DNA of 49,217 nucleotides, filler included, from Catajapyx aquilonaris (lineage: Eukaryota): assembly GCA_000934665.2 (NCBI GenBank). It is 2 parts of 2 records of this genome, joined end to end, with 100 filler letters (N's around TTAATTAATTAA, not from the genome) between each part and the next. Parts side by side here need not be neighbours in the genome. Positions count along the whole stretch, not along the records: positions 24,706 to 49,217 come from JYFJ02005497.1; 1 more part is not named here. The stretch is one strand, 5' to 3'. The notes below the pieces were generated by a model. That model worked only from the letters and a program-made list of their open reading frames with translations, searched no databases and was not told the origin of the DNA. How positions within the stretch are numbered: position 1 is the stretch's first letter; every line of letters starts with the position of its first letter. Positions 21,331 through 48,300 of the stretch are shown here, piece after piece. The position numbers and the translations under genes are program-made.

Positions 21331-22625
21331 AAGGTCCAAATAAAACACAAGAAACAACATGATGATATCCTCATCATAATTATGGATTTAATATATATAA
21401 TACACCTGAATAGTACAGTATCTTCAAACAGACACTTCTGTACACACGATGATGAGCAAATGACATCAACTGAAACAAAAGTGACCAAGCCCACCCATCA
21501 TTAGTCATCCGCCTCAAAACCTCACTGCCAATCATGGCTCCCGTCACCAGAAATTTTAACAGCCATTTCTCACGCAATATCCCACCCAATTTTATGTACT
21601 GACACGCCATAATTGTTCAAAAACATCATGTTTTACACATGTTCTCTTTCCCCTCTAGCGCACCACCATTTTCATGTCCCCAACACTTGAAGCTGCCTCT
21701 TTTTCCTCGATAAATCTTGCAGCTCTTGGTAGTGTCTAGAGACTTTTGGAGGATAGACCTTAAAAAAAAGAGTATGTACCAGGGTTAGGATGAAATATGA
21801 AGGAGTCGGGACCAGGGCGATAAGACGAGATTGGGGGGTAGGGTGTTTCTGAGGGGGAAGTTTGACCATTAGTCCGGAAGCAGGTGGGAAGTTTGAAGGA
21901 GTTATTGGGATCAAGAGACAACCCGATGAAGTCAAAGTGCCTCCGGGAAGGAACCTTTTCCACCTGTCCCTTGACTCCAGCAAGCCCTGGCTCTATGGAT
22001 TTATGAAGAGAGATGTCCCCGGGCAAACCTTCACCTCTCTTCTCTCTCTCTCCCTCTCTCTCTCCTTCTCTCTCCCTCTTTACCTTTTCGCCCATCACCT
22101 CCAGGCTGTTCATTTGCATACATAGAGAGAGGCAGGCAAGGCTGCGTCTCAAAATGTGGGGCAGGATTCCTTTCTCTTCTCCTGCCGCCAGCTACTTGCC
22201 GCCCTTTATTAAATGCCTAGAATAGCGTAGTGTTCAGATAGCCACATGATGGTGCACCCAGTAGTACCTTAAACCACCGCTACTGATATGTTGCCAACGA
22301 GGGTTTAACAACTGACATTTAAAAAAAAAAAGTTGATATAAGGTTGCGACAGTGACTCGTTGACCCTTTAAATTGATAGAAATGAGTTAGTTGAACACGA
22401 ATTTTTAAAGAATGTTGTAATTGCATTAGAGTTTTTATTATGTGTGGAGCATGTAAATTAATAATTGATTGAGGAACAGACGAAGGTTCAATGTTTACTA
22501 TTTACTAAGTTGTTATATTCAAAAACTATGTAAAGACGCACTAGGTACGGGTTAAACTCTCTTTGTAGTGTTATACTTGAATTTACATTAGGTTATTTAT
22601 TGAATTTATTGCATTCGTTGAATTT

Positions 22626-22823
22626 ATCGAAATCAGTGAATTGTCGAAATCAGGGAATTTGTCGAAATCAGGGAATTTGTCGAAATCAGTGAATTTGTCG
22701 AAATCAGTGAATTTGTCGAAATCAGTGAATTTGTGGAAATCAGTGAATTTGTGGAAATCAGTGAATTTGTGGAAATCAGTGAATTTGTCGCAATCAGTGA
22801 ATTTGTCGAATTCAACGAATTTG
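22626..22823. repeat. 18-bp tandem repeat
   Basis: GT(C/G)GAAATCAG(T/G)GAATTT, about 10-11 copies. Confidence 0.95.
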
Positions 22824-24164
22824 TGAGTAGGCCTATAGTCATTATCAAAACCAGGCTACCTTCTTCGGTAGGCTATGGTACGAACCTTCAGAAAACATGA
22901 AATATTTTATTGAATTTATATTATTTATTGAGAATTTATTATTCTACTATTTTATAGATAAATGGCGTTATGGATTTATTTTTAATTTTTGAGAATCAAT
23001 TAAATTAATTCTAACTGTAGGATGGCTCAACATCAGTTGTGAGGAGAAATGGACATTACAGACGCAATGAAATGGGCATGAAACGGGTATGAAGATCCAA
23101 GTAGTGACCAAATACCCTATAGAAGACTCTTTGACCTCCGATTTTCCAGGCTGCTCACCCCCACCATGCACGTGGGATTTCCCGATTTAAACGCTTTCAG
23201 GTGGTGTTTTGCCCCCGCATGGTGTCGGCGGGGATAACCGAATTTGGTCCCTGCAAAATTGCATCTGCCTGGTCTTTTGTGCCCAAGGCGTCAATCCATA
23301 CCCTCTTTTGCCACTGCTTACACTCGAATTTCCCCACCCACTTAACACCCCAGCCTATAGACGACTACAGGGCGCCTATAGCCACAGCCTAGATTTTATT
23401 TTAAACACCCTTGTTGCACAGTCCAATATTCCTTATTGCTTAATGAAACATGGCCGTAAGTAGGGGGTTGTTTATCGGTGAAGTACATTTATTGAGGGTT
23501 CATGAGAGGTGTTATTACATAGTTACGAGTGCTCTTATCTGGCGCTGAGATTGTTGACCGGGGGAAAATAAAGGCAAGGCCCCTCAGGAGCAAGTGAGGG
23601 GTCATATAAATGCATGCAGGCCATATTTGCCACTTTTATCGTACCCAAAGTTCCATAAAATGAGCTGCTCTCTACTTATGTATGGAATTTTAGAAAGGGG
23701 TGTCCAGAAGTCGAAGGTTTTTTTTTTTGGTCACAGAAAGCTGCCTAATTCTTATACAGACCATAATAGTGTACTTACAGACCATTGAATTGAACCTAAT
23801 ATTGCATGAATTATTGAAATACTGGTTATCATCTGTTCATGTTCACAATCATGCAGCAGAGTACTGTACGTTCTTCGCACTGCCTGTTTCCATGGCAATG
23901 TAATCAGCAACAACCAATCATTGTTTTTTGACGATATGGTAACCCGTTGCCACCGACAAACAAACAAACAAAATAAATAAACAACCAACCAACCAACCAA
24001 CCAAATACACAAACAAATAAAAAATAAGCAATAAAGAGTAAAATAAACGAATCAACGAACAAATGGTAAAATAAATAAATTGTAAAATAAATATTTATTT
24101 TACTATTTATTTTGTCATTTATTTTTCTATTTATTTGATTATTTATTTATTTTTTATTTATCAT

Positions 24165-24705: not shown

Positions 24706-25115
24706 TGACGCGTTGTTTACGTGAGGGCCCGCTCTGATTGGTCCGCGGCGTCGACGAGAACTAAAACCAAAACCGTCGACGGCCTGTGTGCATAACCAGG
24801 GACACTAAAATATTTTACGACCAATTTGTCCCTCTTACACTGTCTTGTTACATGTCCTAATACGATCTGACAAACACTTCAATATGAAACCTTGTGAAAA
24901 TAATTACCTATAGGGACATCAGCTTTACGAATGTGCATATCGTGTCGGATACTTACTCCCTTCATACAATAAAATGGAAATATGATATACCAAAAATTGT
25001 GACATTTCACTTTAATTGCTCTCATGCACTATTAGACCTGGTGCTTGAGCAGCACTGGTTTTACAGCAATTTACAGATTCCCAAGCTGGCGGGGTTGTCC
25101 CTTCTAGGCTACTTC

Positions 25116-25542
25116 CACCACCCAACAGCCCCTGGCGTGTGGCCCTCTCGCGAGTCCAGTCCCCTTTATGCGTCTCCCTAAGCTGGCCACGACCCACGGG
25201 CAGGGCGAGCAGCACTCAGGGGCGGCCCCGGGGGCCAGTTCGCCCCCTGTAAACAACCACTAACCTTGCTCAGGTCTAGGAAAGGCTGCAACGAGGCCTA
25301 TTTGGGCCACGTGCTGCTCACGTCGACTTGTACAGCGCATGCGTCAACACGTTCGATCCTAGAGCCAATCAGGGTGGTCGTTGGAGAGCGGAAATTTACA
25401 TGTGCCATTTCATCAACGAATGCGCATGCGTATGAAGTATGCTACTGCCTGATTGGCTGGTCAATTGGGGTGCTTGGTATGTGTAAATGGTAATTGAAAG
25501 TACGTAGGGGGAGGGGTCACTTTATGCGGTGTTGCCACATTC
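25116..25542 (-). repeat. Second, diverged direct copy of the promoter/first-exon unit at 33358-33799
   Basis: Aligns by eye from CACCACCCAACAGCCCC to GTTGCCACATTC; same CCAAT, GCGCATGCG, ATTTACAT, CACGTG and GTTAGT elements retained. Confidence 0.92.
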
Positions 25543-25682
25543 TCCCCGATGGCTGCTGCTTGAAAAAAAAAAATGAAACTGTAGAAATCTGATGATTCTG
25601 ATTGTGTGGAATATATTGTAATCTGGGAAAGAAATGGTACAATAATGGATGAGTCACATTCCAATAGTATGACCCACTGCTT

Positions 25683-25831
25683 TTACTCTCTCACACTTGT
25701 ACGGATATATATGCCACACTCTGAATCAGAACCACAGGAGGACTCGCTCTCCTCAGAATCTGAACTGTCCGATTGTGAACCACTCTCGCTGTCCGATCCT
25801 GATGATTCTTCTTCACTACACTCTCCGATCA
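25683..25831 (-). CDS. UBTF: Probable terminal exon: Ser/Glu/Asp-rich acidic tail
   Basis: tttctttgcag acceptor; IGECSEEESSGSDSESGSQSDSSDSEESESSCGSDSECG...RE* is open only in phase 1, but the preceding strong donor is phase 0. Confidence 0.6.
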
Positions 25832-28800
25832 CTGCAAAGAAACAAAATAAAAATATTTTAACACCAGGGTCAACAATGTGTTGATGTTTCTAGTATTGTA
25901 ACCCTCTATCTGATGCCCTCTTCTATACAATGCATGAGTTTGACATGTTCAGATCCAACGATAAGGCGGTAAAAAAAAAGAAGCAGCAGCTGAGGATATG
26001 GTTATGGTTGCATGCACTCATGTCCCATTCAATGCAGCCTTGCCTTACATTTCCTTCCTTACGCTAAAATAACCCATGTTGAAGCTAGTAATTACTGGGC
26101 ATCAATTAGTTACACTATAGTGAAAACCAAGGCACAACGAAGTACGTAATTAGAACAAATCCCATGATATGGCAGCCTACTTTGATATACATCATAGCAA
26201 TTAAGTTAATGGTGTAATTTCTTTCGCGACTTACTTCCTCAACTGTAATAAATGGTCATGAATTTCTTTATGCTCATTGGGCTAACAGTGAACGACTATG
26301 AATCAAGGACGTAACATTTCTGGACTTTGAATTTGGCATGTTACAGCTTATTTATTGGATGAAATGATGTAAAAATGCAATACATGTTGTCCCATAGGCA
26401 ATTATTGTCCATAGCTAGCTCTGGTTAAAAGGTTGGCTTTGGTGACCTTGGCGGTGAGGAAAAAAAAAAGACGGCTGGCTCATCCAGATGTGGCCGATGA
26501 CAAGGCGAGTGTGGTAAATATAATTAAACCCCACCCGCACGAAATTCCTTATGGCGGTAGACAAAAGGTTAAATCGATAATAATTAACACTCTTTGAAGG
26601 GCCTTAAATGGATGTAGTTGTCAGCTAATGTATTTTTTTTTTTCAAACATCTGATCCTGATCTGCAACAGACTGAACCTAATTCACAGCACACTTGCAAC
26701 CAAAAATCACCATCAATTTACCTCATTGTCACTCTCGTCTGAGTCACTGTCAGTCCCCTTGTCATTATCCTTTCCAGCTGCTTGCTGGCGACTTCCCTTG
26801 ATCACCGTGTATTCTGCTCGTTCCTCTAGACTTAGGCTCTATTTAAAATGAAGACAACAAACATTAAAGTTTGGGAATGGTACCTTTCAATGACACTAAC
26901 TCCACAACTACTCACCTTGATGAACTTCTCATGCTGCTTGATGTACTTCTGCTTCATGTCACTGAGTTGTTTACGGTACTTTGACTTTTCTATCTCTGGT
27001 AACTCTTGCCAATGGCGTGGCGCATCCTCCTTGCGGTCTGTTGGGGCAGTGGCATTTGCCTCCGTGACAAATGTTTGCAGAAAGAGTGCGTATGCCGTCC
27101 TGCAGGAGTTTTCAGTTGTCAGACAGAATAATAAAGTATTTATAGAAATCCAGTTTGGACTACTCACGTTGGGGGTGGTTCTGGTTCATTTTTGTAGAGC
27201 TTGCGACCTTTACGAGAGTCACTCTTGATAACTTGGGTTGACTGGAGAAAAATATGTTCACATTATTGACATCGTAACATGAGTGTTTCAAGAGAAAATT
27301 GGTAGCAAGTACAAACCGGGCGTACTTCTGGACGTGGCTGCTCATCCTCATCAGTTGCGTCTGACTCCTTCTTTACCTTCTTTGGGTTGATGGGAGCAGC
27401 TTTGCGCTTGCGCTTTCTTGGGGGATTGCTCTCTAGCTCCATCTGCCGCTGCACTTGTGACAGAGACTCAAGGTAGCTGGCATATTCCAGTTCGTACTTG
27501 TCCATCATCTAGAATGTAAATCACAAACTTCAGTCTACTTTCAGGTTTGCATTTTTCAGGATCAACAATCGTAATTATTCTTGTTTCATCAAAACAAACT
27601 TTTACTGCCGCTTCTACAATGGGCGATAGTTATATTTATTGCATTTTATCTTGTAAGTGACGCTTAATCAACACCGGATTGCTAAATAAAGTCTCAAATC
27701 TTCAATGCATTTACCTCCTTTGCCTGATCATTATACTTCTTCCGCTCATCATCCTCAAGTTTCCACCAACGTCGGGATATTTCTTGCAAACGATCAAAGC
27801 CGCTGATGTTCTTCAGCTCAGCACTGGGCATCATCACACTTGAGTATAGGAAGTGCCCTGATTGAGGTGGTCTCTCAGGCTTCCCGGCAAACCGGTCCCT
27901 TAGTTGCCTTTCTTTCTTGCTCAGAACTGACGTCAGAGGAATCTTCAATTCTGGGTGATCTCTCCTATACTTCTTCAAAGACTGGTAATAGCGCTGCTCC
28001 TGCTTGCACGTCTGGTTTATCCACTTCATCTTCATTTTCTCAGATAGATTTTTCCACTCTTCCTGGCAAGCCGCAGACAGAGATGCACGGTTGAAGTCGG
28101 TGTCATTCTTGCACTTCTCAAGGCGGGAGTTGTAGAACAGCTAATTGGACGAAACAAGTACAAGGGGTTTAGAAGCCTACAAACTGTGAATACCAGGATA
28201 ATATAATTATTATGAACTGCCAGTTTAAAAAAACATCATCAGGATTATGTGTAAGAATATTACAATTTCATACAACTAAGATAACAATCATTAGCTGTAA
28301 TGCAATCAGAAAGACAGCTACATCAATCTCAAAATCATAGCATTATTTTTGATGTTGCCTTCTCTTCCTTCAGTACATCATATGAAAGGAGATGTGCAGA
28401 AGTGGCGTTAATGTTATGCTGCATATTATCTCATCACAGATTACTTAGAGGAGTACTTGGAAAACTACGCAAGAATTTTCAGTGCTACTTTATCCTAACT
28501 TGCAACTACGCTACTTCTGCACTTCGCCTTGAATGGATTCAGTGGCTAGTTCTTCACAACATTAGGAATGGTCTTACTCACCATAAATGGTGTCTGAGGT
28601 TTGGCCTTGCCAATGTTGGGCTCTTGGACCTTGCGTTTCAAACGCGGATGATCCTTACTGGAGTTTTTAAAAAAGAAAGTAAATTCATTAGTAACGACAT
28701 TTACTCTTGGTAACGATCACTATAAATTGCATACATTATGCATAGTATTCTGCAAATTAGGCTACATCTCAAAGTCGATTTTCCTAATTTAAATGGGCAA

Positions 28801-31800
28801 AAAAGGAGAGCTATTAGAATTTACATGAGTGTCCAGCAATGGGGGGTGCGGACTGATTGAAGCAACATCCCAATGATCAGGAACATAACATTATCTGCCC
28901 GGAATATGCTGCTTCATCCAGCCAGTTTATCTTAGGCAATTGTTGCGGTAACGAAAGAAGGTTCGGACGATTTTTAAAACACTTTCATTGCGATTTGCCA
29001 TGACTGTGGAAAACCTTTGGGGGTTCTGTTTTTTCTATCAAGTTCCAGGCAGAGAGGACTGAATTTTGCCACAAATCCGACACAAAAGTATCATTTGATA
29101 GCGCCAGAGGAAAGAGAACAAACACGGCAACGAACCAAGGTTTTGAGGACACGCATGCACCTTGTTGCACTGCGTAATAACTCTGCAAATTCTGAGTGGT
29201 TGTGAGGGCAGTATAGAAATGCTCCAGTGAAGAAAAGTGTGAGGAATCCCTTGGTCACCTTGCCATACCGATATCTGCTTATATTTGCATCGAAGCGCAA
29301 CAAAACACGCGGTAACAAACCAAGAAAAAAGGTAACGAACCAAGGCGTGCGATTTTCTGTCGATGCAATGTTCAGAACCTTTTCATGGGGAGTATTTGTG
29401 AGCTGTTTTGCCTCTTCAGGACATAACAGGACACATCAGGACACCTGATCAGTCACCAGAGGATTCTCATGTATCGGTCGATTGAGATGGCTAGGTATGA
29501 CCAGGCCATACCTAGCCACCCCATTATGAGACAATGCCGTGATGAATGTTCTTGGATGTAACCCAGGATGAAAAGGGTGTTGCCTACCTACCGAACAGAG
29601 CCTTTGCGGACCAGGCTGACACAGACAGATTAATGAACTGACTAGAGCAGGAAATGTTTTAATAAGTGCTTATTAGAAATCAATAACAGCAAATGGCAAT
29701 TTGGCCCAAAAGAGGTGCCTACGGGAATTTGTTGTTATTTTTGGTACTAAACCAAGGCTTGCGGATGTCCCAGGTTCATTACTAACAATTACGCATTCAG
29801 AGATCACCATCCGACAATTTAAGCAATGCACATCAATATAAAGAGGACATCAAGCTGCATCCAACTGACATTCTTGAGAAGTGATCGAAATAATGGCAAT
29901 GATTCGAGTCGCCTAAAGCTGCACGTGTCCCCAGACGCCTAAAGGCCTTCGGCGTGCACAGTTGAACGTATGAGCAGCTGGTGCCAAAGAAGAGCAACAC
30001 TGGCCAATTTTAATGTTGGGATTGTTTAGTCGAGATGCTGAGCATCCGATTGGTGTGATAAAACGTGGGATTCAACGAAACAAATAATAATCGTCGTTTC
30101 ATGTCCGCTCTATGGAACAACTGAGCTTCAAATATTCACAACATACTTATATTGCTTCATCTTTTCCTCGTATTCTTGTCTCATCCTAGCTGCCTTCTCA
30201 GTGTACATTTGTTTCTTCTCTGCAGAAAGCTTCTCATACATCAGGTATATATGCTGGGACACTTGGCGCTGGAATAATCAATAACAAATAATAGCAGTAA
30301 AGTTCACTCAAGTATGAGTGCTGAGACTCACCTGGTTCATCCCAGGATTATCCTTGGACACCTTGTCCTTGTTGTCACGATAGAACAGCTTGTATGTACT
30401 CACTGGACGGGTAGGCTTGTCAGGGCGTCGAATCTGCAATGATATGACAACAAAATTTGAGTTACATTTTGGTGCCGATTCATTTGAATCGCCCAGGCCC
30501 ACGGGCAGGATGACAGGAGGGGATGTGCAATGTGCAGTGCAAAGTTGCCAAGATGGTACATAATTTGTGAACTCCCCCGGGTGGATATGTCTAGAGGAAA
30601 TTCCACCTGAGACGAAGCCAGAGACTACCCAACTCTGCACGAGATGAAGGGGATGTCCCCGAGCTGGGATCAAACCCGGGACCTTAACATCCGTGGGCGC
30701 ATACGTTACCGCAGCACCACTTCGCCTCCCTACTCGGACATGTATTAGAATTATATGCACACATTCCGATAACGTTTTTCTAGTTGCTCATAACGCCCCT
30801 TCATTACAAACATCCATGGAGCCTGCAGAGTTTGAATTAGATGATAAAAAACTGGATTCATTGTTCCCGACAATTTCTTTCGACATTCTTGGCCAATCCC
30901 GGGTTCAGTGTTGAATATCGCGGCCAATCCTGCTCAACCAACTCTCCCCACGGGGGTGCCAGGAAAGACCTTGTTTAAAAAACTGAATATTTTACTTTGT
31001 TTATATACTTCTATGGAGTCGCCACCACTGATAAACAACATCCCGTAGCCTATGTTCGGCTTGTTGTGCATGCTTGGAACAGGGGCCATTTGGAGGCGTC
31101 ATGGTAATAATATGTCGCAGTAACAATAGATGGGGGCCAATGGGCAGCAGTGGTGGCAACAATATGCCATGGACCACTCAGACGGCTCGGTCAAACAATG
31201 GAGGATTTTAATATTATAGATTTCTTCACAGCGTTCGAAATAGTCTTACTCACCTGAGGTTTGGCCTTGCCAACAGTGGCCTTCTGGGCCTTGGGTTTCA
31301 AATCAGGATGATCCTCACTGGGGTATTTAAGAAGGGAAGAAAATTCATTAGTAGCTATCCCTATAAATTACAAGCGATATGCATAGTAATATGCAAATTA
31401 CACTTCAGAGTTGATCCATATTTAAAAGGTGTAAAAAGGAGAGCTATTAGAATTCACATGAGTGTGCAGCATTGGGGGGTGCGGACTGATTGAAGCAACA
31501 TCCCAATGATCAAGAATATAACATTATTATCCGCCCTGAAGATGCTGCTTCATCCAGCCTGTTTATCTGCCGTATAAATCTGAAACAACTGAGCTTCAAA
31601 CGTTAACAACATACTGGAATTGCCTCATCTTTTCCTTGTATTCATGTCTCATCTTAGCCACCTTCTCTTGGTACATCTGTTTCTCCTTTTCAGAGAGGTT
31701 CTTGTACATCTGGGCAATATGCTTGGACACTTGGGGCTGGAATAATCAATCAATTAACAAATAATAGAGCCAAAGTTCACTCAAGTATGTGTGCCGAGAC

Positions 31801-33262
31801 TCACAATGTCCATCCCAGGATTTTCCTTGCACACCTTGTCCTTCGCGTCAAGAAAGAACAGCTTGTATTTCCTCAATGGACGGCGAGGCAAGTCAGGGTG
31901 TCGATCCTGCAATATGAGAACAAAATATAAGACCTCCACTACTGAATAAGCAGCAATTGGTCCAGCATTACACATCATGTAAACTATGACCTGAACTTTG
32001 TTTAGTCACTCTCTTTGTGCATTTTTTGGTACTCTGCATGCTTCTTTTGTATCACTTTTTACACTCAATTGTCAAATTTAAGCACAAGCTACTGAATCCC
32101 CGAACTTTAGGCCCCCACTCGCACATTTTTAACAGCAACATTATTTTAGAACAGAACCTGATGCATTCAAAAAAAATTGTTAAGGATCACAATTACGGAA
32201 ATCTACCTCAGTTATTGCGGCATGCCGGCCAAACCCCCCGGGTTATACTGGCATGCTGGTCGCCCCCTCACTTTATACCGGCATGCCGCTTTAAGTGAGA
32301 GGTAATACAGTATTAAGATTTCTTCACAACATTAGGAATGGTCTTACCTGCGATTGGACCTTGGGATGCAAATCTGGATGATCCTCACTGTGGTTTTTTA
32401 AAATGGAAAAAAATTCATTAGTAGCTATCACTATAAATTACATTCGACATGGATAGTATTCTGCAAATTGCACCTCAGCGTTGATCCATATTTAAAAGGC
32501 CAATGCGAATAGCTCTATAAGAATTTACGTGAGTGGCCAGCAAAGGGGCATGCGGACTGATTGAAGCAACATCCCAATGATCAAGAATATATCATTATTA
32601 TCTGCCCTGAAGACGCTGCTTCATCCAGCATGTTTAGCTGCCTTTTAAACCTGGAACAACTGAGTTTCAAACATTCACAACATACTAGAATTGCTCCATC
32701 TTTCCCTTGTATTCTTGTTTCTTCCTAGCTGCCTTCTCACGGTACATTTGTTTCTCATTTTCAGGACAGTTCCTGTACCTCAGGGAGATATGCTTGGTCA
32801 CTTGGGTCTGAAATAATCAATTAACAAATAATAGAGCCAAAGTTCACTCAAGTATGTGTGCCGAGACTCACCTCGTCCATCCCAGGATTCTCCTTGCACA
32901 CCTTGTCCTTCTTGTCAAGGTAGAACAGCATGTATGCAGTCAATGGACGGCGAGGCTTGTCAGGGTGTCGATTCTGCAATGATATGGGAACAAAATGTAA
33001 GGCAATAAGCCGCAATTGGTTCCAACATTACACATAATGTAAAATATGACTTTGTTCAGTCGCTCTCTCTGTATATTTTTTTGGTACTCGGCTTGCATCT
33101 TTTGTATCAATTTTTACATTCAATTTTCACAACCTTCTGGCTAGGTTCCGCTGTCCGCTTGTGCTTGTTGGGTATGGGCACCACTGACGTGTCCATTGCC
33201 GTTGCGCTATCAGACGCACCATCCTGTGCCAGCTTCCGTTTACGTGATGCCATCGGTGCCAT
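25683..33262 (-). CDS. UBTF: UBF (upstream binding factor 1)-like multi-HMG-box protein, spliced gene; 655 codons through exon 15 plus a possible acidic-tail exon
   Basis: GT-AG exons join in frame: 33262-33134, 32973-32872, 32807-32686, 32387-32348, 31906-31805, 31736-31615, 31317-31254, 30433-30332, 30268-30147, 28657-28582, 28140-27715, 27508-27326, 27241-27168, 27099-26916, 26838-26722, then 25831-25683 (phase uncertain). UBF-type motifs: HPDKPRRPLTAYMLF, EDHPDL, KPQTPFMLFY, WKNLSEKMKMKWI, DHPEL..LSKKERQLRDRFAGKPERPP, EPEPPPTTAYALF, SLSLEERAEY, Ser/Asp/Glu tail. Confidence 0.88.
26722..26838 (-). CDS. UBTF: UBF-like exon: end of last box, start of acidic tail
   Basis: aaatag|SLSLEERAEYTVIKGSRQQAAGKDNDKGTDSDSDESDNE|gtaaat, 117 nt. 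Confidence 0.82.
26916..27099 (-). CDS. UBTF: UBF-like last HMG box exon
   Basis: ctgcag|TAYALFLQTF...PRHWQELPEIEKSKYRKQLSDMKQKYIKQHEKFIK|gtgagt, 184 nt. Confidence 0.88.
27168..27241 (-). CDS. UBTF: UBF-like exon (STQVIKSDSRKGRKLYKNEPEPPP)
   Basis: ttttctccag|...|gtgagt, 74 nt. Confidence 0.82.
27326..27508 (-). CDS. UBTF: UBF-like exon: end of box 3 plus basic NLS-like linker
   Basis: ttctag|MMDKYELEYASYLESLS...PPRKRKRKAAPINPKKVKKE...RPE; donor GTACGC is weak, and an in-phase GTTTGT lies 9 nt further on. Confidence 0.8.
27715..28140 (-). CDS. UBTF: UBF-like exon encoding HMG boxes 2 and 3
   Basis: attag|LFYNSRLEKC...EEWKNLSEKMKMKWINQ...DHPELKIPLTSVLSKKERQLRDRFAGKPERPPQSGHFLYSS...ISRRWWKLEDDERKKYNDQAKE|gtaaat, 426 nt. 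Confidence 0.92.
28582..28657 (-). CDS. UBTF: UBF-like linker exon C and start of HMG box 2 (KDHPRLKRKVQEPNIGKAKPQTPFM)
   Basis: ctccag|...|gtgagt, 76 nt. Confidence 0.85.
28932..30110. mobile_element. ~1.2-kb insertion in the copy-C intron, possibly a degenerate LINE fragment
   Basis: The homologous introns in copies A and B are ~298 nt; this one matches them on both sides of the interval. Short plus-strand peptide VVIFGTKPRL near 29730 weakly resembles L2/CR1-group RT C-terminus. Confidence 0.5.
30147..30268 (-). CDS. UBTF: UBF-like HMG box 1 copy C, second half
   Basis: ttccag|RQVSQHIYLMYEKLSAEKKQMYTEKAARMRQEYEEKMKQY|gtatgt, 122 nt. Confidence 0.88.
30332..30433 (-). CDS. UBTF: UBF-like HMG box 1 copy C, first half
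   Basis: ttgcag|IRRPDKPTRPVSTYKLFYRDNKDKVSKDNPGMNQ|gtgagt, 102 nt. Confidence 0.88.
30497..30730 (-). mobile_element. tRNA-derived SINE, family A, in UBF-like intron
   Basis: Reverse complement shares GCGCCCACGGA.GTTAAGGTCCCGGGTT, CGTGCAGAGTTGGG, CCACCCGGGGGAGTTCACAAA and TTGCACATCCCCTCCT with 10740-10970. Confidence 0.85.
31254..31317 (-). CDS. UBTF: UBF-like linker exon B (EDHPDLKPKAQKATVGKAKPQ)
   Basis: cccag|...|gtgagt, 64 nt. Confidence 0.82.
31615..31736 (-). CDS. UBTF: UBF-like HMG box 1 copy B, second half
   Basis: ttccag|PQVSKHIAQMYKNLSEKEKQMYQEKVAKMRHEYKEKMRQF|gtatgt, 122 nt. Confidence 0.88.
31805..31906 (-). CDS. UBTF: UBF-like HMG box 1 copy B, first half
   Basis: ttgcag|DRHPDLPRRPLRKYKLFFLDAKDKVCKENPGMDI|gtgagt, 102 nt. 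Confidence 0.88.
32204..32311. mobile_element. Small inverted-repeat element (GCGGCATGCCGG family)
   Basis: TACCTC..GCGGCATGCCGG / CCGGCATGCCGC..GAGGTA; same motifs recur at 36220-36550. Confidence 0.5.
32348..32387 (-). CDS. UBTF: UBF-like linker exon A (EDHPDLHPKVQSQ)
   Basis: cacag|...|gtaaga, 40 nt, restores phase 0; EDHPDL follows box 1 in UBF. Confidence 0.8.
32686..32807 (-). CDS. UBTF: UBF-like HMG box 1 copy A, second half
   Basis: tttcag|TQVTKHISLRYRNCPENEKQMYREKAARKKQEYKGKMEQF|gtatgt, 122 nt. Confidence 0.88.
32872..32973 (-). CDS. UBTF: UBF-like HMG box 1 copy A, first half
   Basis: ttgcag|NRHPDKPRRPLTAYMLFYLDKKDKVCKENPGMDE|gtgagt, 102 nt. Confidence 0.88.
33134..33262 (-). CDS. 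UBTF: UBF-like coding exon 1 (MAPMASRKRK...EPSQK), basic NLS-like N-terminus
   Basis: Acceptor tgtcctgcag just upstream (exon starts 33271), ATG at 33262, donor AAG|GTTGTG; 129 nt, phase 0. Confidence 0.6.
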
Positions 33263-33357
33263 TGCGATTTCCTGCAGGACATAATGAGATCCTAAGTACT
33301 GTACATTGCACGGGTACTTAGGGCCGGCTCAAGGGCGCCAGGCTGAGCCGCCATTTT

Positions 33358-33799
33358 CACCACCCAACAGCCCCTGGCGTGTGGCCCTCTCGCGCGTCCA
33401 ATCCCCTTTATGCGTCTCCCTGAGCTGGCCTCCACCCACGGGCAGGGCGAGCAGCCCTCAGGGGCCGCCCCGGGGGCCAGTTCGCCCCCTTTAAACAACC
33501 ACTAACCTTTGCTAAATCCGGCTGAAACGAGCGTGCCTATTTCGACCACGTGCTCAACTCGATTCTACAAGGACGAAGGAGCGCATGCGTCAACATGCCC
33601 CGATCCTAGAGCCAATCAGGGTGGTCCGTGTTGAGCGGGAATTTACATGTGCAATTTGCTAATGAGAGCGCATGCGTGTCAAATATGCTGCTACCTGATT
33701 GGCGGACCAATTCGTGTGCTTGGAATGTGTAAATTTTAATTGAAGGTACGTAGGGGGAGGGGGTGGGTTGGGGTCACTTTATGCGGTGTTGCCACATTC
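33358..33799 (-). promoter_or_regulatory. Probable UBF-like gene promoter, short non-coding first exon and start of intron 1
   Basis: Two CCAAT boxes (~33611, ~33697), two GCGCATGCG NRF1-like sites (33581, 33668), octamer-like ATTTACAT 33641, E-box CACGTG 33547; donor AAG|GTTAGT at 33506 can pair with the acceptor at 33272. Confidence 0.6.
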
Positions 33800-34806
33800 G
33801 CGCACGGAGACATACGCCGGTGAGATTAATGACCTGTGACATTGTTGTACTGTACAGACATGAGCGCGGTACACTCTGTGTGCCTATATACCTACCATTT
33901 ATTCTCATTGTTAAAATAGAGGTGGCAATATTTAAGCATGCGGTATATATTTGCAAAAACTCGTAAAATTTTCAGTGCAATGTGTTTAGCACTTTAAAAC
34001 GGCAGCTATAATAGCAGGCATGCACATTTGACGTGTTTGGACAATACAACATTTTTGTGTATTACGAATTTTTTGGGGCCTTTTTTTTACAGTTGAAAAA
34101 TTGCATCTAGACGTGTACGACTATCTTGGCAACAATGTAAGGTATGAGAATTCCAATTAATCCTTAAGATTAAATTACCCCATAAAACCTTCATATGCTG
34201 CATATGCAACCGGTGCACACTGGGAAAAATTATTCAATAATAAATGTATAGCCAACCACCGGGTTATAGCTATATAAAAAACACACAAATTGTTGACATC
34301 AATTACAGTACTGTAATTACATGCATAACATTTTATAACGTGACCATTTTTGGGGACATTGGCGTTATAAAACCTTCCCTGTAATGACAAACCCGACCAA
34401 GTGCTGCGAGTTTGGTAATAATTATTTGGGCAACATGGGCAGTGATGGATATTGGCATGGTCGATTGCATATAGCAATATAGTGCTGCTCTATCTGCAAA
34501 ATATTGCGAATGTTTACATCCTTGCAGATTACGTGACATAATTTTAATGTAAAGGCATCGGCGTCCCCCTTCCACATAGATAAACAAGGTCATGATAGAG
34601 AGTGAAAAAATAGACAGGCGTACCTCTCTCCCTCTCTTTTTTCCCCCCCTCGTCCCCATCAGCAATTCCTCCCCACCACCCCACTTTTCTCCCAATGGGT
34701 GTGTACGGCTTGGTGTGTACGTGTGTCTGAAGTATATGTATGCATGCATGTGTGTGTGTCTGCTGGAGCGTGTGTGTGTGTGTACTCTTTTTTCACCCCC
34801 CTCTGG

Positions 34807-34846
34807 ATTTTCGGCGGGAACGGATGGAGGGCGGGAAGTTTCCGGT
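34807..34846. promoter_or_regulatory. Cluster of E2F-like sites in the intergenic region
   Basis: ATTTTCGGCGGGAA (12 nt identical to 36921-36932), GGCGGGAA, and ETS-like TTTCCGG within 40 nt. Confidence 0.45.
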
Positions 34847-36306
34847 TAGGAGCCCTCCACAGTGCTTAATGATTGTTGTCCACTTCAGGCTTTCCATGCT
34901 CGGTCTATGGCTCATCTGGATTTTAGGGGTTTGGCCTATCGTTATCCAAAAGCTCTGTTGGATTTATTTGGAAAGAAAAAGAGCGCCCTCTATTTCCCTC
35001 CCCTCCTATAAATCGTTAGTGTTGAATTCTATGTAAGCAAAGGCAGTGGAATGTTCGCTCCAGCAACCTATTAAAACGAAATCGATTGTCGAGCACTGCA
35101 ATTATTGCAGTGCTCGACAATCGATCCAGAATCTTATCTCTCTCCCGATTATCTCCCATTGAATAATTATTAGAGAGATAAGATTTTGGATTGTTTTCCC
35201 CAGCACGTCAATTTTTAATATTGGCAACACGACAGGGGCACAGGGCCCACACACTTGTCAAAAAGAAAAATTAAAATCCTATAACTTATTGTGACATAAC
35301 TGTACGGACCAGCCAACTTTTGTACTTAGGTATTTCACCTCTTGCATAGTTGGAGACGTGTGAAGCTGCCAATTGTGAATTACTTACACATAGTAGTTAC
35401 TATAGGTTACTTGGCAACACTGCTTGCCCCCCCCCCCCCCCCCCCCCCANCCCCCCCCCCCCGGAAGTAGTACTGTAGGCGACTGTAGGTCCCTACCAGT
35501 TGGCGCATAGGTTGTCCCTCTGCATACTACTGCCACCCTCAGGGGGAAAGTAGTACTACATGCACGTTGGTGATGAGTCACCGCGCGGACAAAGCCCACC
35601 AGGGCGCTGTAACCAGCGCGTGTCTCGCTTCCATTGAAGAGGTTCCCACCCTCTCTGACAGTGATGTGCTCTCTAATCGTTGAACATGGAAAATGAAAGT
35701 TATGGTAAACTACACTATACCTTGACTATACTCTACCTATAGGAGTATAGGTTATGAGTCGAATCGGACAAACAAGGCGGACGGAAAGAATAATTGGGAT
35801 TGGTAGTATGATGAAAATAAAAAAATAAAACTTCGTGCGTATTGGTTATAACATGGTTTTTTCTGCGGTCCCTTGAAGTCTTATATCCGGCGTCAACTAA
35901 CTATAAGTATAACACCCTATGCCAGTCTGCTTTTGTTAGAACATTGCACTCGAAATGTGTCAAATATGATTGCTCCGTTCATTACTATCAGGTCGGACAA
36001 ATGGACCGTGTTATGCAGTAATGTGTCAACCCACAAAATATGTCAAAATTGAGCTAAGCCCAGGAACATACACCTAAAGGATCCCACTTCATTCAGTTAA
36101 AATCACACTGGTGAAATCTGTACCAAAATGTCCCCTTTTCGATAGCCTCTACGTGAATTAATATTTTCAGCCAAATGTCATCGTCAAGTTCGGAAATGAT
36201 CATGTAACTTTAGTGAAAACCTCGCCTTATAGCGGCATATACCTCACCCTATATCGGCATGCCGGTATATAGGCGTATAGCCACCAGATCGTTCATATCT
36301 AAAAAA

Positions 36307-45300: not shown

Positions 45301-48300
45301 CAACTGGTTCCTGGTAATGCATGATGTGGATTTTTGTTTGCACAGATGTAATGTTAGCACAGACAATTTCTGCCAGCTGTGATAACGGTCATTTGCGGCA
45401 GCCAGGAAGAGAGGGGCCATACTAATGCAGCAGCCTGTTGGTTCACGTTATACACATGGTTGCACTAGGTGTAACTCTTACTGGCCCATTACATTCCAAT
45501 CGTAACTGATGGAATTAAAGTCACTAATAAAATTCACCGGAATTATGCTGATTCTTGATGCTGATCTCCTTTCAGGTGTTAAATATAATCAAATGTGAAA
45601 ATGTGCCTTGAACTCGTCTTTTTAGGTAAGGCCCTCATGGAGAAAAGTCGCTACGACACTTCCCTGGGCCTTCTCACAAAACGTTTCGTGGAGCTGCTGC
45701 GCAGCTCCCCAAATGGAGTGGTGGATCTGAACAAGGCAGCCGAGAGGCTGAAGGTGCAGAAGCGGCGCATCTATGACATCACCAATGTGCTTGAAGGCAT
45801 TGGCCTTATTCAAAAGAAGCTGAAAAATATGATTCAATGGAAAGGGGGTCCTCTGCCAGGGGAGGAAGGAGGAGAGGAAGCACTGATGAAGCTGACGGAG
45901 CATCTTCAAGAACTGCAGGCAGAGGAAGATAACCTGGATGATCTCATAAGGACCACAGGTATGTGAATCAGAAGTTCTGAACCGAGAGCACGTGCTAACC
46001 AAATCCCCTATAAAACTATGATTGAAGAGAACAGTTGTAAAGTTCATTGCTATTACCAAGAACATGTCAGTGTCACTGAGATCTGATTAGGCATTTCGTG
46101 AACTTGTAATGTGGTGGGGATTGTGTACTATATCAGGCATTTGCTTTCCAGAGCTGGAGATAAAACAACTCTCGGAAAAAAATAAATACGCTTACATGAC
46201 CCACCACGACCTACGTTCCCTGCCTCAGTACAAGGGTCAGACACTCATGGTGATCAAAGCACCCCCTGAGGCCACACTGCAAGTGCCCAATCCTTCTGAG
46301 GTAAGGAGCCCGCTTGTCCAACCTGCATTCGTCCATGAGAATGACAAAATGGTACGCTACACACGTCAGAGGTTGATCGTAGGTAGTATTTGGTAACTCA
46401 AGAGCATGGTGGTTGCAGTGCAGCCTTTTGATGAAGATTGATGAATGCAGATTAGGAACGGTAGGGATGGAATAACCGGAATGATACTTTAACTTTCAAG
46501 TTGAAGAATTTTTACTGGAATGTGTGGGTTGAATTTACCAACATGTTGTTGACTACATTTAGTCATACTCGGAACTGGGGTGGTGCACTGTTCATATACG
46601 CATGGGTAGGGTCCCATGATGAGATGGTGACAATGATGACCCTGTACCGAGAGAGAGGGAGAATAAGACAGCCCCTTTCTGATAAAGGCAGTGCACCAAA
46701 TCGGTTATATTCATCATCATGCCGTTTCACCAGTCATAGCAACGATCTAAATGGAGCAAGCAAAAATTAACTTCTTTCACTCTTTCAGGGATACCAGCTG
46801 TACCTGAGCAGTAAGAAGGGGGAGATTGAAGTGTACCTGTGCCCAGAGGAGGGCAGCGTGGCTGAGGATAAGGGCAGTAGTGTCACTCCGGCTCCACACC
46901 CCTCCCCGATCTCCACTGCCATTACCTCCGCCCACCACCACACCCTGCATCCTCCCCGCGCACCCCATGTTCCAGTGGCTCCTTTCCCCTCCCCACGCAA
47001 ACAACACACACTTTCTCCAAGGTACACTTCCTCCCCAATCCGCCCTACTGCCTGGCGATCCCCCAGGAAGAGCAGGGACGAGGTGCTGGCCCACAGGGCT
47101 CTCATCAGTGAAACTGAAGACCTGGGGCCCATGGGAACACCTAAATTCCAGCTCCAGACAGAGGATCAGATCCAATCAGGTAATGTTTCATAAAGGTGAA
47201 CGTTAGATTCGTTTAGGTTATTACCAGTTGTGTCTTGGTGTAAGGGTTAAAACAGCATTGCACTATACTTTGCCTGTTGCGTGTATTGCTTATGTCATAG
47301 TTTGTGATACAAGGTGAATTTGTTATCTGTAAAGCAATATTTAATCATGTTCGGGAATCATTAAAAATGATTGTTTGCCAGTCAATCTTCCACCAAATTG
47401 TTGCAACAAATTTTCAGGTATTGTCATTGCCTAAGATGTGTGGACATGACCTTTTATGGAGGGGAAATGTCTCCAGAAACATGCTAAATACTAAGTAACC
47501 ACGCACTTTCTTGGCAAAGTGAGCTGGTAAACATTCACTTAATCCTTTGGACGTTGTTTGCATGAGAGACATACTTGTAAGCAGTGTTCAAAATGTTATT
47601 TATTTCTTAAGCAATTGGTTTATATTTTTTTGCCAAGGAAGTGATGGTGATATTGATGACTTGCGGAGGAGCCTCTTGTTGTCAGAGTGGTAGGAACTCC
47701 CACTGTGGTATGTGTAGAATTACTTAATCACATCACAGATGGAGCTCTTATCGTTCTGACAATCCCAGGTGGCAGCTTGACCAACGTGTCTCCTATTGCT
47801 TCAACTTCGAGGAAAGCATAGCAGTTTGTTCGCGCTGAATTACCTGGTTCATACAGTTTTATAATTGTAGCACCATGTGATTCAGCTTGGACCGGCTGAT
47901 CACTAAGCAACATGTTCCCGAAGAAGAGTCCTGGTAATATGAGCTGATCAGAGAAGATTTATTGATTTTCTAATTTGTACTGTGTGATAAAAGGGATTTA
48001 TTGTTTTCGTATTTTTTGTTTGCGCCATTGCTGCATTTTTTCATGCAATGTACACCCGCGAGCATAAAGATGGAGACTCCGGGCCCTCACCTTCGGCAGG
48101 CTGCTCTGCCAATCTCAGCTATTACGGTATCAAATATACTGTCATAAATACACGAACACACGCCTGAAGCAGCTAACTCCAAAAAGAGTTCATTAATTTG
48201 AGTCGGATAAAGAAAGGTCAGAAAAGGGCCTGTCGTCTCCATCTTTACGCTCGCAGGGGTACACTGCTGGACATATTAGCCGTCGCTGAATGTTTTTTTC

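Follow-up and report, generated by a model that had tools for sequence, protein, structure and literature searches.

UBF, an HMG-box transcription factor for ribosomal RNA, has been reported through the metazoans, except in Drosophila and C. elegans, in the account given by PMC4973289. Outside the case described here its N-terminal end is stable, with one dimerisation domain followed by one each of boxes 1, 2 and 3. In the enhancesome model as set out in PMC10435976, boxes 1-3 of each monomer in a UBF dimer loop ~140 base pairs (bp). In PMC3905846 the first UBF box is described as 'the most canonical', and the dimerisation module together with boxes 1 and 2 as enough to bind and bend ribosomal DNA (rDNA). 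Here we describe a UBF-derived gene of Catajapyx aquilonaris (assembly GCA_000934665.2, record JYFJ02005497.1) in which box 1 is present three times. The gene lies on the minus strand of a stretch of 49,217 nucleotides (nt), two genome parts joined end to end, which we call the window and along which all positions are counted. An earlier note on this DNA had called box 1 the main rDNA-binding box; the backing for this comes from the literature, which calls the first box 'the most canonical' and credits binding and bending to the dimerisation module and the first two boxes jointly.

The three copies of box 1 lie in three tandem units of ~1.07 kilobases (kb), each holding a three-exon module. 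The region 27000-35000 holds 11 direct-repeat families, seven of which (D1, D2, D4, D5, D7, D8 and D9) occur in three copies across 28.5-33.1 kb, with start-to-start spacings of 1055-1098 nt between the two upstream units and 1468-2672 nt to the third. Unit 1 (33129-32311) and unit 2 (32074-31212) are 82.8% identical over 797 nt. Unit 3 is alignable as two pieces, 30456-30113 (81-84% identity) and 28932-28550 (73-76%), its second intron being interrupted by ~1.18 kb of inserted repetitive DNA that splits the match. Because the copies are 17-20% diverged, a chance match or simple assembly stutter is ruled out. The triplication of the box-1 three-exon module at this locus is confirmed.

All three units share one layout: a 102-nt exon a, a short intron (64, 68 and 63 nt in units 1, 2 and 3), a 122-nt exon b, a second intron, and a linker exon c of 40, 64 or 76 nt with a DHPxL motif (Table 1). 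The linker reads EDHPDL in units 1 and 2 and KDHPRL in unit 3. The nine exons have AG at 9/9 acceptors and GT at 9/9 donors. Coding lengths are 264, 288 and 300 nt, and every unit is entered and left in phase 0; each being a multiple of three with phase 0 at both ends, every copy is in frame. The introns, too, can be aligned. The a-b intron has 63/64 identical positions in units 1 and 2, and comparisons of these with unit 3 give 56/63 and 57/63; between exons b and c, units 1 and 2 agree at 250/297. The earlier note had described three blocks of common architecture with alignable introns, intact splice sites and intact frames, and on all of this the repeat search, the exon coordinates, the intron alignments and the 18 splice sites bear it out. 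The limits it had drawn, 28582 and 33130, are also right, as the third linker exon ends at 28582 and unit 1 is bounded at 33129-33130.

The introns of the array carry other repetitive DNA. A very high-copy short element occupies 30486-30762, in the intron ahead of unit 3, with a summed contig depth of ~2x10^5 in the DNA runs; neither ARAGORN nor Rfam found a tRNA there. Repetitive DNA is also present at 32148-32424 (depth ~3000) and 28824-30208 (depth 450-1500), the latter including the 1.18-kb insertion of unit 3.

A profile search with the exon that encodes most of boxes 2 and 3 (the box 2-3 exon) returned 217 proteins at E <=0.001, and box counts were made on 150 representatives. The best named relatives are arthropod proteins annotated as nucleolar transcription factor 1, from Schistocerca, Onthophagus, Frankliniella, Lycorma, Dinothrombium and Strigamia. 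Full-length matches are just 24-37% identical over this exon, so the organism's own protein and its close kin lie outside the set compared. A word-index protein search with the same exon gave one match; with the 40-residue unit-2 exon b it gave, among longer proteins, one candidate and none that was scored. The locust UBF P0002 (Schistocerca gregaria XP_049858540.1) matches the window exon by exon and has one box 1; identity is 56-58% in box 1 and 40% in the box 2-3 exon over 140 residues.

The boxes were then typed. They were located in 169 database proteins and in the gene model by a purpose-built profile, and type profiles were made from 72 relatives by position. Copies 1, 2 and 3 were all typed as box 1, at 108.7, 101.8 and 85.2 bits, with no other type above 53 bits; for comparison, relatives that were not used in training have box 1 scores of 58-114 bits. 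The fourth box was typed as box 2 (89.6 bits, next best 55.2), the fifth as box 3 (97.9 bits, next best 74.2) and the sixth as the last box (83.2 bits, next best 54.8). The three boxes split between exons score 60-68 bits against the 68-position purpose-built profile, the Pfam HMG matches being those of the unspliced box 2-3 exon. At the 19 best-conserved columns of the family, the three copies retain the consensus residue in 46/57 cells. Spacings between boxes are 88, 96, 85 and 96 residues, and the median distance from box 1 to box 2 in the family is 90 (5-95%: 80-136, 87 relatives).

A box tree places the copies in the same way. IQ-TREE was run on 103 rows (96 box-1 sequences, the three copies and four box-2 outgroups) and the tree was rooted on box 2. 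The three copies form one clade (100/89) that is sister to the Schistocerca box 1 (95/88) and lies inside the box-1 group. As the copies are each other's closest kin, the triplication is lineage-specific. Of the 150 representatives, 96 carry a single box-1-type box, 53 are fragments without one, and one, P0109, has four. We considered P0109 as a UBF with a repeated box 1 and rejected it; its boxes are of the generic HMGB type, with margins of 12.7-28.4 bits, and it has no match to box 2, box 3 or the dimerisation domain. No second true box 1 was thus found among the 150 representatives of the 217 relatives, nor did we find a paper on a UBF with repeated box 1 in the full-text literature library searched. 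The earlier note had identified the boxes as UBF box 1, expected them to be sisters within the box-1 clade, held that a UBF has one such box and proposed a lineage-specific origin. Profile typing and tree uphold the identification, the sister grouping and the origin, and 96 of the 97 representatives with a box-1-type box uphold the rule of one, P0109 being the 97th.

Evidence for expression comes from the contigs of four runs, three of DNA (X1, X2 and X4) and a fourth, X5, from another sample and study, which were compared with positions 25500-33800. The X5 contigs contain joints that skip exactly GT-AG introns (Table 1) and that are absent from all three DNA runs; for these reasons we treated X5 as spliced RNA. 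One X5 contig of 771 nt, record 23, matches exon b of unit 1, then that of unit 2 and then that of unit 3, each with 0 other letters. The intervals between these matches are 142 and 166 nt, and the tail behind the last is 76 nt. The gene model predicts just these lengths, namely 40+102, 64+102 and 76 nt. Matches and gap lengths together indicate that a single contig runs from the last 21 nt of unit 1 exon a to the end of unit 3 and includes every exon on the way. The proposal in the earlier note that spliced RNA would contain all nine exons thus agrees with record 23, in part by arithmetic and from within exon a of unit 1 onwards.

The gene departs from UBF at its N-terminal end. A dimerisation domain precedes box 1 in 82 of the 87 relatives that start box1-box2-box3. 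In the other five (P0016, P0034, P0042, P0076 and P0100), box 1 starts at residue 20-59 without a match to the domain; either their gene models are truncated or they may be short in nature, as we propose for the present gene. In the 49-kb window no dimerisation domain was found, either by a profile of 88 UBF N-termini (best E 0.79 over 2157 six-frame open reading frames, ORFs) or by tblastn with P0001 and P0002. As a control, eight held-out domains were cut into thirds and searched for at the same database size, their close kin also being left out of the profile, and 24/24 pieces were detected at E 1.4e-4 to 1e-13. The search would therefore have picked up even a split dimerisation domain, and within the 49-kb window the locus encodes none; exons beyond the window are possible, and upstream the space for them is bounded by an E2F gene on the plus strand at 45.6-46.4 kb. 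The description of the gene as 'UBF-like' or as a UBF variant holds for its homology to arthropod nucleolar transcription factor 1, but lacking the domain that defines UBF it is a UBF-derived gene and not a plain UBF.

We consider it probable that this is a UBF-derived gene whose box-1 module was copied twice in tandem, and that all units are spliced serially to give a six-box protein in which the extra boxes would be bending modules. The host would be an arthropod-like animal, in which unequal recombination within the flanking introns would have copied the module (box 1 and its DHPxL extension) twice. Units 1, 2 and 3 are spliced successively into one RNA, as record 23 shows, and the protein has three boxes of type 1 followed by box 2, box 3 and the last box, all at canonical spacing. 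By analogy with the enhancesome, the extra boxes may act as added DNA-bending modules in register with the others. One six-box chain could then wrap DNA in the manner of a UBF dimer, in which each monomer supplies its boxes 1-3, and the added boxes could stand in for the missing dimerisation.

Several points weigh against this explanation. X5 has no record as RNA, its nature being deduced from the joints; three of the eight pieces of record 23 are seen directly, the rest following from length arithmetic; contigs are blind to rarer isoforms that skip a unit; and the 5' exon and 3' acidic tail of the gene are predictions only. X5 contig cover is absent over 32979-33532 (predicted first exon) and 25500-26053 (acidic ORF), which is no evidence either way. 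The remaining points concern the way in which the copies, now 57-67% identical as protein, have changed. Ratios of nonsynonymous to synonymous substitution (dN/dS) between them are 0.92, 2.38 and 1.13, and differences are spread flatly over the three codon positions (14/20/14, 21/21/10 and 18/22/15). Identity between units 1 and 2 is 81.8% in the exons and 87.1% in the introns. Where the copies differ, the columns are just slightly more variable in the family than elsewhere (mean entropy 2.43 vs 2.01, p 0.036). With dN/dS near 1 and flat codon positions, the copies may be drifting, the reading frame being kept as the downstream boxes must be read.

The frame has been kept all the same. Under the observed number of random substitutions, all three copies remain free of stops in 1.4% of simulations (P 0.014), and the intron rate predicts 3.6 insertions or deletions for 264 nt, whereas the exons have none (P 0.027). 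By these comparisons the fold core and the frame are kept and the remaining residues change at or above the neutral rate. Diversifying selection on functioning boxes would give this pattern, and so would relaxed drift of redundant boxes with the frame guarded by the downstream exons; three sequences cannot decide between the two.

The strongest competing explanation builds on drift: the extra boxes would be expressed and functionless, evolving neutrally, and open merely since a stop or frameshift would cut off boxes 2 and 3. The dN/dS values at or above 1 and the flat codon-position profile speak for it, and so does a second feature of the array. The best-conserved part of each unit is not an exon but a hairpin of ~80 nt in the second intron, on the gene strand (Table 1). 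Its columns are invariant at 68/77 positions, compared with 187/261 in the exons (p 0.0024) and 114/163 in the rest of the intron (p 0.002); by part, the counts are 34/35 in the 3' arm, 21/26 in the 5' arm and 13/16 in the loop. The predicted folds have energies of -26 to -31 kcal/mol with z -2.6 to -4.8. We regard the hairpin as a candidate intronic small-RNA precursor that was tripled with the unit, and on this explanation the copies may have been retained either by chance or for a small RNA whose dosage matters. That the hairpin is better conserved than the exons raises the question of what selection keeps the copies. The case for the hairpin is tempered by the finding of compensatory changes in 0/32 pairs and by an Rfam search over 25000-34500 in which no family scored above threshold, the sub-threshold match being mir-458 at the unit 2 hairpin (22.3 bits against a gathering score of 59, E 0.67). 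As for the boxes themselves, they still score 85-109 bits, within the range of the family, they keep 46/57 conserved cells, and their spacing is still canonical. Moreover, a useless phase-symmetric unit could be deleted or skipped without harm, yet all three are present in the RNA contig. On balance we think it rather unlikely that the extra boxes are passengers, while giving this more weight than the two explanations that follow.

Serial splicing could itself be questioned. The units might be alternative or mutually exclusive, so that each protein carries one or two box 1 variants, with the hairpins steering splice choice. Alternative-exon clusters in arthropods are usually built in this way, from similar exons in tandem with conserved elements in their introns; each unit here is phase-symmetric, so skipping preserves the frame; and the contigs, in which rare forms are lost, contain 21 further joints beyond those listed. 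Set against this, record 23 carries units 1-2-3 in series where mutually exclusive use would put one unit in each mRNA, and no unit-skipping joint is among the listed X5 joints, so that we judge a cassette of alternative units very unlikely. Finally, that haplotypes or paralogous copies were joined in tandem by the assembly and the true gene has one box 1 is barely credible: the DNA contigs of X1, X2 and X4, which may share a sample with the assembly, are short (<=683 nt in the listed pieces) with none spanning a unit, and variant exon contigs exist, but a spliced contig from another sample and study follows the window's order of units 1, 2 and 3 and has 0 other letters over exon b of each, and the units are 17-20% different, with unlike linker lengths and unit-specific insertions.

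The serially spliced, six-box gene may not be the only arrangement of this array. X5 contains a variant of unit 1 exon a with eight changes at 32904-32939, which is also found as one contig in the DNA runs X2 and X4, and a joint in which an exon-a variant is preceded by a linker-type exon and not by a first exon. In a 198-nt X5 contig, an exon b close to that of unit 3 (12 other letters in 116) is joined to an exon a close to that of unit 1, with another DHPDL-type linker behind it. Such box-1 exons are absent from the window, and so there must be at least one more box-1 unit, in another haplotype or a second gene copy; contigs cannot separate haplotype from gene copy, and contig depth gives no copy number. 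We infer that the length of the array differs between haplotypes or gene copies, and the variant box-1 exons are compatible with an array of changeable length. The phrase 'expandable array of DNA-binding modules' in the earlier note is apt for an expressed triplication with variant exons that fit a changeable length; that the modules work we infer, since there is no excess of silent change.

Variation is not confined to box 1. The exon at 27508-27317 is expressed in two versions, one identical to the window and the other with 19 other letters and 3 gaps. Diverged second exon versions (~5-10% different) occur in RNA and DNA contigs of X5, X2 and X4 at 32904-32939, 30151-30266, 27317-27508 and 27106-27173.

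A bolder version of the preferred explanation, and one we hold to be unlikely, is that the gene has swapped dimerisation for multiplication in cis. Having lost the dimerisation domain, it would have restored a six-box looping unit in a single chain through the repeats of box 1, with an array that diversifies and differs in copy number between haplotypes or gene copies. Every new unit would bring a further small-RNA hairpin, so that protein architecture and small-RNA dosage would shift in step. Whatever the extra boxes do, three box 1 modules in register without a dimerisation domain offer a natural test of whether box number per particle or dimerisation sets the loop. The locus is also a clear case of a whole folded domain, spread over three exons, that was expanded by phase-symmetric tandem duplication and then diverged fast.

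The rest of the gene and its surroundings are listed in Table 1. The donor of the predicted first exon is 4 nt from the boundary of unit 1. Its translation is of low complexity, basic and Ser-rich, and compared with the N-termini of 65 UBF relatives its best z is a weak 3.6. At the other end of the gene there are signs of a UBF-like acidic C-terminal tail. A short acidic stretch closes the exon 26838-26722, and a longer acidic ORF follows at 25831-25690, the join of which to the previous exon is putative: a phase-0 join at 25831 runs into an immediate stop, and an AG 11 nt further on (start 25820) would be in frame. A GC-rich, promoter-like element of 445 bp upstream of the predicted gene start has a second copy just past the 3' end. 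The two are in the same orientation and 81.9% identical over 453 nt, a divergence about that of the box units. Pfam found 0 families in 150 ORFs flanking the gene (19.1-25.0 kb and 33.3-45.3 kb). At 22534-22900 there is a tandem repeat with frames open on both strands, one of which contains KSVNLS-type repeats.

Table 1. Features of the UBF-derived gene and its surroundings, in window coordinates. Record numbers and joints refer to X5 contigs.
Feature	Coordinates	Strand	Evidence and remarks
Predicted first coding exon of 43 codons, with ATG at 33262 and a GT donor; product basic and Ser-rich	33134..33262	-	predicted from sequence only
Unit 1 exon a, 102 nt, N-terminal half of the first box 1	32872..32973	-	AG/GT, phase 0; joint 32807>32872 in 2 contigs
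Unit 1 exon b, 122 nt, C-terminal half of the first box 1	32686..32807	-	record 23 positions 22-143, 0 other letters
Unit 1 exon c, 40 nt, EDHPDL linker	32348..32387	-	record 23, 142-nt gap = 40+102
Unit 2 exon a, 102 nt	31805..31906	-	coordinates and record 23 arithmetic
Unit 2 exon b, 122 nt	31615..31736	-	record 23 positions 286-407, 0 other letters
Unit 2 exon c, 64 nt, EDHPDL and basic linker	31254..31317	-	record 23, 166-nt gap = 64+102
Unit 3 exon a, 102 nt	30332..30433	-	coordinates and record 23 arithmetic
Unit 3 exon b, 122 nt	30147..30268	-	record 23 positions 574-695, 0 other letters
Unit 3 exon c, 76 nt, KDHPRL linker and first residues of box 2	28582..28657	-	fits record 23 tail, 696-771
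Exon for the larger parts of boxes 2 and 3 and the HPEL linker	27715..28140	-	Pfam HMG_box 8.2e-08, HMG_box_2 1.3e-07; record 22, joint 27508>27715
Exon after box 3, 192 nt	27317..27508	-	joints 27508>27715 and 27241>27317; low end set by RNA, replacing 27326
Exon with start of last HMG box	27168..27241	-	joints 27241>27317 and 27098>27167 (cut +1)
Exon with rest of last HMG box	26916..27099	-	typed as last box, 83.2 bits; joint 26838>26916
Exon ending in a short acidic Ser/Asp stretch	26722..26838	-	joint at 5' side
Putative acidic Ser/Glu/Asp ORF, 47 codons, behind a strong acceptor	25690..25831	-	inspection of the sequence
Candidate intronic hairpin, unit 1	32553..32632	-	minimum free energy -26.2 kcal/mol, z -3.0
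Candidate intronic hairpin, unit 2	31482..31561	-	minimum free energy -31.2 kcal/mol, z -4.8
Candidate intronic hairpin, unit 3	28849..28925	-	minimum free energy -26.6 kcal/mol, z -2.6
Promoter-like GC-rich 445-bp element upstream of predicted gene start	33355..33799	.	second copy at 25113-25542, just past the 3' end of the gene
E2F-family gene, divergently upstream of the UBF-derived gene	45589-46393	+	E2F_TDP 2.5e-29, E2F_CC-MB 6.7e-14

The new observation, which we regard as confirmed, is a germline tandem triplication of UBF box 1 that is real, expressed and lineage-specific; the function proposed for it is presumptive. In its general plan the gene resembles UBF/UBTF: the boxes come in the order 1-2-3-last, the linkers are of the DHP and HPEL kinds, box 3 is followed by a segment of the 'YELEYASYLESLS' type, and there is an acidic stretch towards the C-terminus. 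It differs in having three box 1 modules instead of one, in the lack of a dimerisation domain at the locus, and in its long acidic tail, which the best acceptor does not join in frame.

An in-frame tandem duplication within a UBF gene has a parallel in human UBTF, in which somatic duplications of exon 13 are described in acute myeloid leukaemia (PMC9780084, PMC11290532). As characterised in those papers, the UBTF duplications are short, somatic, confined to one exon and linked to disease, whereas the present case is germline and diverged and concerns a whole three-exon box-1 module. A more distant comparison is yeast Hmo1, an HMG-box factor of rDNA chromatin that in the description of PMC3905846 combines a dimerisation module with a single canonical box, behind which lies a conserved region. 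By that description the copied unit here is alike, being a canonical box with a conserved stretch behind it. Hmo1 needs its dimerisation module to stimulate RNA polymerase I; the present locus has no such module, and the box is multiplied instead. Among the 150 representatives the commonest architectures are box1-box2-box3-last (28 proteins), the same with one middle box (22) and with two (5). The number of boxes in UBF relatives thus varies in the middle boxes and never in box 1; here it is box 1 that varies.

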